Shown one piece after another: positions 33,570 through 43,787 of a stretch of 43,787 bases of DNA. The DNA is from Bradymonadales bacterium. Lineage in GTDB: Bacteria; Bdellovibrionota; UBA2394. The stretch lies in assembly GCA_007693605.1 (NCBI GenBank), contig REDG01000053.1, positions 1 through 43,787 on the forward strand, in the 5' to 3' direction. How positions within the stretch are numbered: the stretch's first letter is position 1; each line of letters starts with the position of its first letter. The translations under genes and the position numbers were made by a program. The notes below the pieces were generated by a model. That model saw nothing but the letters and a program-made list of their open reading frames with translations. It did not search any database and was not told where the DNA came from.

Positions 33570-33599
33570 TTGCAATGGTACTACATTGGATATACAATG
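33570..33599 (+). promoter_or_regulatory. Sigma70 promoter of the TA operon with overlapping inverted-repeat operators
   Basis: TTGCAA-N17-TACAAT, overlapped by CAATG-N6-CATTG-N6-CAATG. Confidence 0.7.
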
Positions 33600-33622
33600 A
33601 GTTTACAGAAAGGTATGTTTTT

Positions 33623-33853
33623 ATGGTTAAAAAGCTCGTAAAACATGGGAACAGTTTGGCACTCATTTTAGACCGGCCGGTTCTCGATTTACTTCATATT
33701 AATGAAGAAACATCCCTCGATATTTCTACTGTGGACGGGAAGTCCCTTCAGATCACGCCTATTTCGGAAGCGGAACGCCAAAAGCAGTTTTCGAAAGCTC
33801 TGAAGAAAGTGAACAAGAAATATAAGCATACGCTTCAGAACTTGGCGAAATAG
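33623..33853 (+). CDS. AbrB/MazE-family antitoxin
   Basis: KKLVKHGNSLALILDRPVLDLLHI swapped-hairpin motif; stop overlaps the toxin start. Confidence 0.9.
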   Translation: MVKKLVKHGNSLALILDRPVLDLLHINEETSLDISTVDGKSLQITPISEAERQKQFSKALKKVNKKYKHTLQNLAK

Positions 33854-34308
33854 TGACTCTTTTAAATCCTCGGTTTTTAACACTCGATGAAGTGAAAGCC
33901 ATCCATCGCTCTCAAATCGAAGGCTTTGGTGGCTCAGTCGAGATTCGTGACGAGGGGCTTCTTCTCTCTGCACTAGCGCAACCCGAAGCTGGATTTGGCG
34001 AGTGCTATCTTCACGAGTCATTAGAAGACATGGCTGGCGCTTATTTATTTCATATTGTCAAAAATCATCCTTTTGTGGATGGAAACAAACGCACAGGTAC
34101 GGCTGCGGCTTTGGTTTTCCTGGAACTCAACCATGTTGAACTTCAAGCAGAAGTTTTGGATAGGGTGAAGCGCACAACATCTTCAACTCTGCTGGAAGAG
34201 CTCGTTATTCGAGTCGCTTCGGGAAATACGGATAAAACCGAAATCGCCAAATTTTTCAAAAAGTATCGACAGCGGCCTCAATTTGGGTGGGCTTTGCGTC
34301 CGAACTGA
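33853..34308 (+). CDS. doc: Death-on-curing (Fic/Doc) toxin
   Basis: IRDEGLLLSALAQP and HPFVDGNKRTG Doc motif. Confidence 0.92.
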   Translation: MTLLNPRFLTLDEVKAIHRSQIEGFGGSVEIRDEGLLLSALAQPEAGFGECYLHESLEDMAGAYLFHIVKNHPFVDGNKRTGTAAALVFLELNHVELQAEVLDRVKRTTSSTLLEELVIRVASGNTDKTEIAKFFKKYRQRPQFGWALRPN

Positions 34309-42083: not shown

Positions 42084-42194
42084 TCAAAAACCCTCCGCCA
42101 TTTTCTCACTCAAAGTCCATTCTATCGCCCCCAACACAGCCTCTAAAGAGCTTTCTTCCCCATTTCTTTGGAGCAAAAAGCTGAATATTTTGTT

Positions 42195-42213
42195 TTTAAA
42201 ATATGACATATTT
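42195..42213 (+). repeat. Left copy of 19-bp inverted repeat (core palindrome AAATATG-N-CATATTT)
   Basis: TTTAAAATATGACATATTT is the exact reverse complement of 43356-43374. Confidence 0.9.
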
Positions 42214-42301
42214 CCGTCTGATAGAAAACCTCTTAAAAAGCCAAAGAACGCCATAAACTTTTTGATTTCTTATTTTTATATAATATTTTATTATATTATA
42301 A

Positions 42302-42991
42302 ATGATCCTGTATAAGCTCTTCGCTTACCAAGAAAGCTCCGATCCATCTCTGCGATCGCACTACTATCGACACCGCTCGATTCTCCAAAAGAAGCTTTCA
42401 GAGATTCCTTTCGCCCCATGGTTTGGTGAGAAGGACGCCGAACTTATCCGGCTTCTGTCAAAGTTTGGGCCCCTAGAGCCCGCAGATCTGCAGAATCAAT
42501 CGCAGCAGTCGAAGCTCCGAAAGTGGAATCAGATTCTGCCGCAAGATCCTCATTTCTTTAGAATGCTAGAGGGCCAGATGCAGCTCTATAAAAACTTTTC
42601 CGAGTCAAGCATCGAGCGGTTTTTCGAGAGTCCAGAAGCCAAGGCTTGGGCGCTGCAACGAGCAAAACTAAATCGCCCTCCACTCTTTGAACTCGATCAA
42701 TTTTTCAAGTCTTCGAAGACTCCTGCACTCCATCGTGAGAAAGTGGCGCGGGCGCTGTTAAGATCTCAGCCCCTTCTTCGCTTGATCGATCTACAGGAGA
42801 TGGGGCTGAAAAATGCTCAGACCATTTGGGAGCGATTCCCTTTTCGAGAACTCTATCGGAGGTCTTATCTAGACTCTCTAAAATCAAATCTCTCTGCCGG
42901 GAAAAGCTCTCGTAGACTGGACTTGGAGAGTAACCCCATAGCCCAGACTTTCCCAAAAGCCTTCGAAGCTGAGCCTCAGTCAGTTGAATGA
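42302..42991 (+). CDS. Hypothetical protein
   Basis: 229-aa ORF after a very AT-rich promoter-like tract; no SD (possibly leaderless); overlaps the antisense HTH gene by 287 bp. Confidence 0.6.
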   Translation: MILYKLFAYQESSDPSLRSHYYRHRSILQKKLSEIPFAPWFGEKDAELIRLLSKFGPLEPADLQNQSQQSKLRKWNQILPQDPHFFRMLEGQMQLYKNFSESSIERFFESPEAKAWALQRAKLNRPPLFELDQFFKSSKTPALHREKVARALLRSQPLLRLIDLQEMGLKNAQTIWERFPFRELYRRSYLDSLKSNLSAGKSSRRLDLESNPIAQTFPKAFEAEPQSVE

Positions 42992-43280
42992 AGTAGTATC
43001 GAGAAAGAACTTTGCGAAGAACGCGAAGGCTAGGTGCTTTCAGCAGAATATAAGCCTCTACAATCTGCTGCCTCGACTGTTCGTCGAGCCTCTCTTTTCG
43101 CAACCGCTTTGTCTGTGCGAGTTTGCGCTCCGACTCTCTGATCCACCGATAGATGGTCTCTCGCGAGACCCCGAGATCTCGGGCAATGCTCTGAATGGGT
43201 TGGGCCTCTGACCAAGCGACTAGGGCCCTTCTCTTTTGCTCGGAAAGCTTGGTTTCAAATTGTTTATTATTCTTTGTCAT
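42705..43280 (-). CDS. Transposase-type double HTH DNA-binding protein without catalytic domain
   Basis: IQSIARDLGVSRETIYRWIR (HTH) followed by SLRVLRKVLSRYYFIQLTEAQLRRLLGKSGL (winged-HTH of the IS630/IS481 type); no DDE domain visible. Confidence 0.7.
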   Translation of the reverse strand: MTKNNKQFETKLSEQKRRALVAWSEAQPIQSIARDLGVSRETIYRWIRESERKLAQTKRLRKERLDEQSRQQIVEAYILLKAPSLRVLRKVLSRYYFIQLTEAQLRRLLGKSGLWGYSPSPVYESFSRQRDLILESLDKTSDRVLEKGIAPKWSEHFSAPSPVDRSSEEGAEILTAPAPLSHDGVQESSKT

Positions 43281-43355
43281 TTCATCTCATTTTGATACAA
43301 TTAACAAAGCTTGATACTCGCTCCTATATGCCCTTCTAGCTTTTCCTATTTCAGC

Positions 43356-43374
43356 AAATATGTCATATTTTAAA
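43356..43374 (-). repeat. Right copy of 19-bp inverted repeat
   Basis: AAATATGTCATATTTTAAA on the + strand. Confidence 0.9.
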
Positions 43375-43395
43375 TTTAAAATTTATAAATTATGA

Positions 43396-43422
43396 GTTCG
43401 TAAAATTATTTATTTTACGAAC
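43396..43422. other. Perfect palindrome, candidate tyrosine-recombinase binding/crossover site
   Basis: GTTCGTAAAAT-TATTT-ATTTTACGAAC, ending 28 nt before the recombinase ATG. Confidence 0.6.
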
Positions 43423-43450
43423 AGAGTAGAATTGGCGAAGATAATGGGAG

Positions 43451-43710
43451 ATGAAGAGCGGCCAGAACCCGAAAATTTTAGAAGCTGAGAGGCACCCCCT
43501 TTTTGTGGCCCTTGGGCAGTACCTGGTCGAGCTTCGAGAAGATCGAAAACTGAGCCCGAGCTCAGTCTCTCTTTACGAGCGAGAGATTCTGGGGCTTTTT
43601 GGGCTCCTGTCGAATCCTAGCGATCTTAGTGATCTGAAATTGAGCCTGCGGAAAGCTTCGACGGCCACCATTCGTCGAAAGATCGGAATATGGAAGCAGT
43701 TTTTGAGAAG
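43451..43710 (+). CDS. Xer-like tyrosine recombinase, N-terminal (SAM-like) domain; partial, truncated by contig end
   Basis: Manual translation: MKSGQNPKILEAERHPLFVALGQYLVELREDRKLSPSSVSLYEREI...ASTATIRRKIGIWKQFLRS. This matches the XerC/D pattern (YL..ER.LS..T...Y.R....S..TI.RK). Confidence 0.7.
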
Positions 43711-43787
43711 CGGGCGGGCGCCGGGGGGGGGGGGCGGGGGGGGGGGGCGGGGGGCGGCGGGGGGGCGGCGGGGGGGGGGGGGGGGGG
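43711..43787. other. Poly-G low-complexity tail, probable sequencing/assembly artefact
   Basis: An almost pure G run interrupts the ORF at the window end. Confidence 0.85.

Follow-up and report, generated by a model that had tools for sequence, protein, structure and literature searches.

We found that the analysed window (the whole stretch of DNA, 43,787 nucleotides long) ends in a module that is single-copy and conserved, with its gene order kept, across a family of 14 genomes that includes this one (the family label is used loosely). The module consists of a gene for a Xer-like tyrosine recombinase, a 27-bp palindrome directly upstream of it, a gene for a helix-turn-helix (HTH) protein, a convergent gene for a basic protein (orfA), and an asymmetric motif present in two inverted copies that bracket the two convergent genes. 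We tentatively favour the reading that a solo recombinase and its core site were domesticated here and that this unit, gated by the HTH protein, would resolve sister chromosomes near the terminus.

The first-pass annotation had called attention to a perfect 19-bp inverted repeat around two convergent ORFs, and the repeat stands as described: positions 42195..42213 are the exact reverse complement of 43356..43374, the looser similarity reported to continue outward extends the repeat to 27 nt at 89% identity, and the spacings of 88, 75, and 76 nt from the repeats to the starts of orfA, the HTH gene, and the recombinase gene are all confirmed. Both ORFs, orfA (42302..42991, plus strand, 229 aa, with a conserved core of about 200 aa) and the HTH gene (42705..43280, minus strand, with a conserved core of about 125 aa), lie within the bracket, but the annotation had left unmentioned that their 3' ends overlap by 287 nt. 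The recombinase gene (43451..43711, plus strand) is likewise present beyond the right repeat, but only its 5' third, 87 codons, can be read before the contig runs into a poly-G end (43712..43787) that is likely a sequencing artefact and where a public contig (X1) diverges from the window. The 3' part has no match elsewhere in the assembly of this genome; a recombinase fragment on contig C53 was rejected as the missing piece. The window contains no tRNA and no RNA family at threshold, and an RNA-hairpin role for the palindrome is conceivable. Two public RNA runs from the same study contributed 0 reads, which carries no weight on expression.

The repeat is not readily obtained by chance. When the two intergenic regions were block-shuffled 1,000 times, no run produced a 19-bp inverted repeat (longest: mean 8.5, maximum 16 bp). 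The 19-mer has no third copy in the 2.19-Mb genome at up to three mismatches, and its 15-mer core occurs exactly only at the two repeat positions. Perfect inverted pairs of at least 19 bp that lie 0.2 to 5 kb apart number 12 in the genome, of which this repeat is one.

A search of relatives showed that the gene trio and the twin inverted motif are kept family-wide, which supports the dedicated system that had been proposed. The HTH gene has one match in each of the 13 other family genomes and none in 27 genomes of other families; orfA occurs in 13/14 family genomes and in 0/287 other genomes of the phylum, and in the sole family genome without it a contig end falls inside the HTH gene. The recombinase clade is represented in 12/13 relatives, and the contig of the thirteenth stops just past the palindrome. 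The two convergent genes overlap tail to tail by 38 to 287 nt in 12/13 genomes and are 2.6 kb apart in G010. Distances among the recombinases track those of XerD (rho 0.65, p 0.006) and trxB (rho 0.41, p 0.02), and orfA distances follow those of the HTH protein, with no significant link to housekeeping genes. The module lies near glpX in eight genomes including this one; surrounding genes vary, and the flanks hold glpX-region and variable genes rather than a transposon, as judged from the ORF listing and homology, with family scans for part of the ORFs. No description of the module was found in the literature searched, which included few subscription papers.

The resemblance of the HTH protein to a transposase N-terminus could suggest a decaying relic of an IS630-like or integrative element in which the repeat is a chance product of AT-rich DNA. 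This reading is very improbable and largely refuted by the single copy in every family genome at protein identities of 26 to 62%, the open reading frames, the invariant catalytic residues, the shuffles described above, and the 20 synonymous versus five non-synonymous codon changes that separate a close pair of recombinases.

Comparison across the family showed the perfect 19-bp repeat to be the form that a degenerate, non-palindromic 24-bp motif (consensus nnnTGTnnnATTTTAAnTGTnAAA) takes in this one genome; the motif is asymmetric and has two TGT triplets 14 bases apart. A de novo search recovered the right copy (43358..43381, plus strand) in 13/13 genomes, always at one offset from the palindrome, which begins 15 nt beyond it. 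The right copy recurs at this offset in 11/12 metagenome loci, is shifted by a single base in the remaining one, and is absent from 172 flanks of non-family sites; it is fixed to the palindrome and not to the HTH start (98 to 159 nt). The inverted left copy (42188..42211, minus strand) emerged independently in the de novo search, and a matrix built on the right copies of the other genomes ranks the two repeat copies of this genome first and second. The same kind of matrix scan places a left motif 5' of orfA at p<0.02 in 10/13 genomes, with weak matches in G011 (p 0.12) and G002 (p 0.08) and none 5' of orfA in G010. In G010 and a relative (L222), the left copy and its AT-rich tract sit beside the end of the HTH gene although orfA has moved. 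Six more metagenome loci extend far enough upstream to be scored; there the left motif reaches -3 to 8, and it is weak or absent in some of them. The AT-rich tract itself (42257..42301, 93% AT) lies directly 5' of orfA and is 80 to 93% AT in 9/10 relatives, the tenth having a misplaced anchor.

Elsewhere on the long contigs of relatives there are sites whose scores equal that of the left motif copy. A third matrix match in this genome, 5' of trxB (C42:13969), was rejected, as it is not conserved in the nine relatives examined. The motif was also rejected as a sigma-70 promoter, since no match falls on it in this genome. A sigma-70-like match with an extended -10 (43274..43301, plus strand; a consensus match only) faces the recombinase, and at this place 11/14 family genomes have a TGATAY/TGAAAC motif.

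The first-pass annotation had offered an invertible cassette as one of two explanations, and our comparison argues against the bracketed stretch as a routine inversion switch. None of 23 loci is flipped, namely the 14 family genomes and nine further metagenome loci (12 were of family type, and three of these repeat G006, G008, and G010), all of them kin and majority forms from assemblies that would miss rare flips. In 14/14 genomes and 9/9 further loci the HTH gene starts beside the palindrome and points away from it. The twin copies agree at only 12 to 21 of 24 bases with no identical block at a common place, their longest in-register identical block being 4 to 9 bp at shifting positions in 11/13 genomes, and the palindromic core of the repeat is peculiar to this genome (self-complementarity of 0 to 12 of 14 in relatives). 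A public contig, probably from the source sample, runs through both repeats with no joint, and rare forms are lost from contigs. Moreover, the recombinase has a better candidate site in the single-copy 27-bp palindrome. On our preferred reading, the twin repeat would be a pair of protein-binding sites and not the crossover points of a phase switch.

Rare inversion is a different matter, because assemblies show the majority form only and the twin copies evolve in concert: they are more alike within than between genomes (16.9 versus 14.9 of 24 bases, p 0.0004; p 0.003 without this genome). A minority of cells might flip the stretch between the twin motifs, with the palindrome as an operator or helper site, and the flip, by the recombinase or another enzyme, would turn an internal, outward-pointing promoter away from the recombinase gene; a promoter-like match inside the segment does point outward. 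We regard both the flipping by a minority of cells and its effect on the promoter as fairly doubtful. The inverted copies bracket the HTH gene even without orfA in G010 (555 nt apart, 1/500 shuffles), they share 19 bp here, and in G001 a 12- to 14-bp G+C-rich block outside the motif is shared. Shared protein binding explains the within-genome likeness and the G001 block less well than DNA exchange does, and strongly biased switches exist, with about 4% inverted at one Clostridioides difficile site (PMC5903667). Against this stand the 0/23 count, the short and shifting identical blocks, the unconserved dyad core, and the contig that crosses both repeats; in addition, the same data did reveal both orientations of an unrelated cassette (L191 and L226, see below).

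The palindrome (43396..43422; arms of 10 to 11 bp and a variable centre of 5 to 7 bp) is AT-rich, intergenic, and linked to the recombinase gene, and it occurs at exactly one locus in 14/14 family genomes. Only 4/287 other genomes of the phylum have it, at one mismatch and none of them near a recombinase, and a reversed-pattern control gave no matches. The arms co-vary: immediately outside the core they pair in 13/13 genomes, with four pair types among them, and the 7-nt centre drifts among relatives. The arms equal the XerC-side arm of the Neisseria dif site, as given in PMC2731167, at 9 to 10 of 11 bases. The palindrome is thus probably the core site of the recombinase. The best genome-wide match for a partner site in this genome has seven mismatches of 25, and the best in relatives have 6 to 11 (stretches of 3 to 390 kb per relative); because the genome has no partner site, the palindrome would pair only with its sister copy or with incoming DNA.

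If the palindrome paired with incoming DNA, the module would serve to integrate, excise, or resolve phages, plasmids, or an additional replicon carrying the same palindrome. The flanking genes do vary, and insertions lie right beside the site, but in G005 and G010 the inserted genes have no second palindrome next to them, and the four viral contigs with the palindrome pattern lack the family genes. Viral contigs have no close relative of the recombinase either, and phage and plasmid records hold no relative of orfA, which leaves this an improbable function.

Scanning with the palindrome pattern returned 86 metagenome loci and four viral loci, of which 12 are of family type and 78 are not. An unrelated tyrosine recombinase is present at 18/40 distinct non-family sites (loci of at least 2.5 kb), against a background of 33/3,641 5-kb windows of this genome, a rate that is likely lower than in gut bacteria. 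Fourteen of 38 distinct non-family 25-mers have an inverted partner with the same centre and a recombinase in between, and two loci (L191 and L226) represent one non-family cassette in both orientations, with flanks swapped at 60/60. The inverted partners and this cassette therefore identify the sequence type as a tyrosine-recombinase crossover site outside the family. Since the non-family recombinases beside the same 25-mer form a clade separate from the family enzyme, a crossover role for the family palindrome follows by analogy. The inverton motifs reported in PMC11892184 may bear on these non-family cassettes.

The recombinase is, by its sequence, a third, family-restricted Xer-like enzyme that is neither XerC nor XerD. 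Full-length copies in relatives have 277 to 312 aa and are simple-type tyrosine recombinases with core-binding and catalytic domains, in which the R-K-H-R-H/W-Y signature takes the form R-K-H-R-H-Y, invariant in 11/11 relatives aligned; catalytic integrity refers to these copies, as the one in this genome is read to codon 87 only. In a tree of 33 sequences, from which six XerC rows were left out, the recombinase clade stands apart from XerC and XerD with support of 95/93. Scores are 405 to 467 bits within the family and at most 166 outside it (137 other genomes), where the best matches are ordinary XerC or XerD by gene context. Against the XerC, XerD, and XerA equivalogs the enzymes score 131 to 169 bits (cut-offs 220 to 335), and against XerS 61 to 91 bits (cut-off 267), with 10/10 below in each case. 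The XerC and XerD of this genome also fall below the XerC cut-off, so it is the tree that carries the clade assignment. Matches to invertase models reach about 46 to 60 bits (cut-offs 221 to 222), which places the enzyme outside the Fim subfamily by score.

HTH proteins of the family (133 to 209 aa) have two HTH subdomains and resemble the N-terminal DNA-binding part of IS630, IS3, and IS481 transposases; the matches cover only the first 120 to 143 model positions and include no DDE catalytic domain. In structural comparison the predicted model ranks Tc3, a CRISPR-repeat-binding protein, and paired domains highest, though no match reaches significance by E-value. Bipartite HTH domains of the Tc3/paired type read long asymmetric sites. 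The HTH protein likely binds the twin 24-bp sites. The orfA proteins, in turn, are basic in 12/12 and have a predicted all-helical fold (pLDDT 88.5). They match no family in Pfam, NCBIfam, PHROGs, or PADLOC, no solved relative by sequence, and no fold in the PDB or among viral models, and no longer or fused form was found among 8,000 candidates. A wide structural search gave a best Z of 5.2 (rmsd 3.7, 78 aligned), with weak HTH-like matches to residues 139-201 and the other parts barely covered, and these results do not show a new fold. A predicted complex of orfA, HTH protein, and recombinase (G007 copies) scored 0.00, which counts neither way.

The second explanation in the first-pass annotation, twin operators bound by the HTH protein, fits this anatomy, but the idea that each gene has its own operator loses weight, since the left copy remains beside the HTH gene where orfA has moved away. 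In its strict form, the HTH protein at the twin motifs would control its own gene and orfA and nothing else, the gene overlap giving antisense interference, while the recombinase would merely repress its own gene at the palindrome or act at an unrelated site; we consider each half of this circuit unlikely. The motif lies 80 to 119 nt before orfA and about 60 to 120 nt before the HTH gene, the overlap is shared by nearly all genomes, and Tn3-family resolvases autoregulate through their sites (PMC7157771), all of which would suit a regulatory circuit. The persistence of the left copy and AT-rich tract beside the HTH gene in G010 and L222, the anchoring of the right motif to the palindrome, the full set of catalytic residues, and the use of the same 25-mer as a crossover site elsewhere speak against it.

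The module coexists with a XerCD/dif system. This genome has XerD beside scpA, XerC after trmFO, and a canonical dif on contig C36. Across the family, XerD-tier matches are found in 10/14 genomes, XerC-tier matches in 13/14, FtsK-gamma in 13/14, and the dif pattern in 12/14, one of which (G002) looks spurious. Skew position could be judged in the three genomes whose contig brackets the GC-skew maximum: the palindrome lies 58 kb from it in G007, where dif coincides with the maximum, 27 kb from it in G008, and 40 kb from it in G012, where dif is 106 kb from the palindrome. The 27 to 58 kb between palindrome and skew maximum fall inside the range given for Legionella dif (89 bp to 79 kb; 10.1101/2021.09.12.459815). 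Strand-skewed octamers, none of them a clear KOPS-like word, change polarity at dif or the skew maximum and not at the palindrome, so that the palindrome is not the main dif of the chromosome, a candidacy also rejected on the canonical dif at the skew maximum in G007.

Our preferred, still tentative reading is that the third Xer-like recombinase would bind and recombine the upstream palindrome as a back-up to XerCD/dif. The bipartite HTH protein would read the asymmetric two-part motif and control the recombinase; the right motif, phased against the palindrome core, may be an accessory site, and the left motif, 0.55 to 1.2 kb away, a looping partner or operator. The basic orfA protein may be a helper or second regulator, and the module would descend from a mobile-element resolution unit fixed in the ancestor of the family. 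The back-up role in sister-chromosome resolution, put forward from sequence comparison, falls a little short of probable. A genome with XerCD, dif, and FtsK has no need of another resolution system, and terminus nearness in the family is one ancestral event and not many; both count against it. So do the displacement of the recombinase gene (which inserted genes separate from the palindrome by 1 to 2 kb in G005 and G010, and which was not found within about 2.4 kb of it in L168), the weak or missing left copies, and the within-genome likeness of the twin copies. An unlikely variant is a second, FtsK-independent system for unlinking chromosomes, assembled from domesticated mobile-element parts. 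In that variant, the HTH protein, derived from a transposase, would sit one and a half turns of the helix away from the symmetric, XerC-like core and license the recombinase. The orfA protein would serve as its partner or as an off-switch, and the twin sites, by looping or now and then flipping the two control genes, would turn the system on or off.

The solo Xer systems known so far take the place of XerCD. A family that keeps both, with the solo enzyme linked to a transposase-derived HTH protein and an orphan protein, would, if confirmed, represent a new mode of control over site-specific recombination and an example of core genes recruited from mobile elements. Should the twin sites flip, they would form an old, family-wide phase switch of regulatory genes. 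A recombinase this compact, paired with a symmetric site of 27 bp and perhaps gated by a protein, could also become a tool, and the parts are small and testable in E. coli.

Several known systems share parts of this anatomy. XerS/difSL of streptococci and lactococci, XerH/difH of Campylobacterota, and XerL/dif of Legionellales each combine a solo tyrosine recombinase with a site of about 30 bp (PMC1914069, PMC5357621, PMC2731167, and 10.1101/2021.09.12.459815; see also PMC8138268 and PMC11318664). Like these, the module pairs one recombinase with an AT-rich, intergenic, single-copy palindrome and is a vertically inherited mark of its lineage; their sites lie in the terminus region, as may the palindrome, and, as with XerS, the palindrome lies directly upstream of the recombinase gene. 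Unlike them, it coexists with XerC, XerD, dif, and FtsK instead of replacing XerCD/dif, its site is off the polarity switch, and its enzyme is shorter than XerS (about 356 aa) and far below the XerS cut-off. None of these solo systems, as those sources describe them, has an equivalent of its two additional conserved genes or of the second, phased motif.

Invertons of the FimB/FimE type and of gut bacteria (Clostridia group 139/invertase group 35) also have inverted repeats beside a tyrosine recombinase, which in our relatives is adjacent and catalytically intact, and the palindrome has the sequence of the repeats flanking recombinase cassettes outside the family, one of which was observed in both orientations. 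The module differs from FimB/FimE-type invertons in its single palindrome, its degenerate twin motif without a dyad, and the lack of a flip in the 23 loci. With IS630/IS481/IS3 transposases and the Tc3/paired domains, the HTH protein shares two HTH subdomains joined by a basic linker, but unlike those transposases it lacks a catalytic domain and is a single-copy protein conserved family-wide.

Like TnpS/TnpT-rst of the Tn4651 group and TnpI-irs of Tn4430 (PMC7157771), the module places its site between the gene of a tyrosine recombinase and a divergently oriented partner gene, and it has a core inverted repeat accompanied by (here candidate) accessory subsites. Unlike these, it has no transposase, no terminal repeats were found, and it is a chromosomal single copy across the family; its partner is a bipartite HTH protein, and it includes a third gene, orfA, without a fold match. 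The module thus resembles XerS/difSL or TnpS/TnpT-rst in anatomy and is a member of neither.

The canonical dif pattern is present in 11-12 of the 14 family genomes, and in the genome of the window (G000) a dif-like site of this type lies at C36:3665-3685 (locus L101). The pattern coincides with the GC-skew maximum in G007; in G012 (contig C4) the two are 66 kb apart, and in G008, of the same genus, the distance is probably about 85 kb if contig C5 joins C1. The maximum falls between dif and the recombinase module in G012 and, on the same condition, in G008.

The third-best match to the matrix built from other genomes' right motif copies, a back-to-back motif-like sequence upstream of trxB (G000:C42:13958-13992), was rejected, as it is not conserved in the 9 relatives examined. 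At L030:5668-5845 in G010, the upstream gene is succeeded by a long G+C-rich hairpin; the left motif and AT tract come next, with orfA absent from this place.

Five elements of G000, each about 260 nt and ending in one common perfect inverted repeat (C2:26323, C12:7506, C31:6585, C41:2232, and C71:21773), are likely miniature transposable elements. At C53:49028-50790 (L005), a transposase-like ORF adjoins the 3' fragment of another integrase, and this contig end is common to C53 and four other contigs. The poly-G or poly-C contig ends of the window (43712-43787), C9, C30, and C33 are likely sequencing artefacts. At window 33575-34308, a gene that weakly matches MazE precedes one of the Fic/Doc family, and the two likely form a toxin-antitoxin pair.

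Outside the family, inverted pairs of identical 25-bp palindromes, the sequence type of the module, enclose one tyrosine recombinase gene. A single such cassette was found in both orientations (L191:2501-4085 and L226:391-1967), and further metagenomic loci share the design (L219, L158, L187, L199, L236, L159, L162, L202, L185, L212, L182, L196, and L207). Judged from gene context, their hosts are probably Clostridia, and these cassettes may be a known inverton group.
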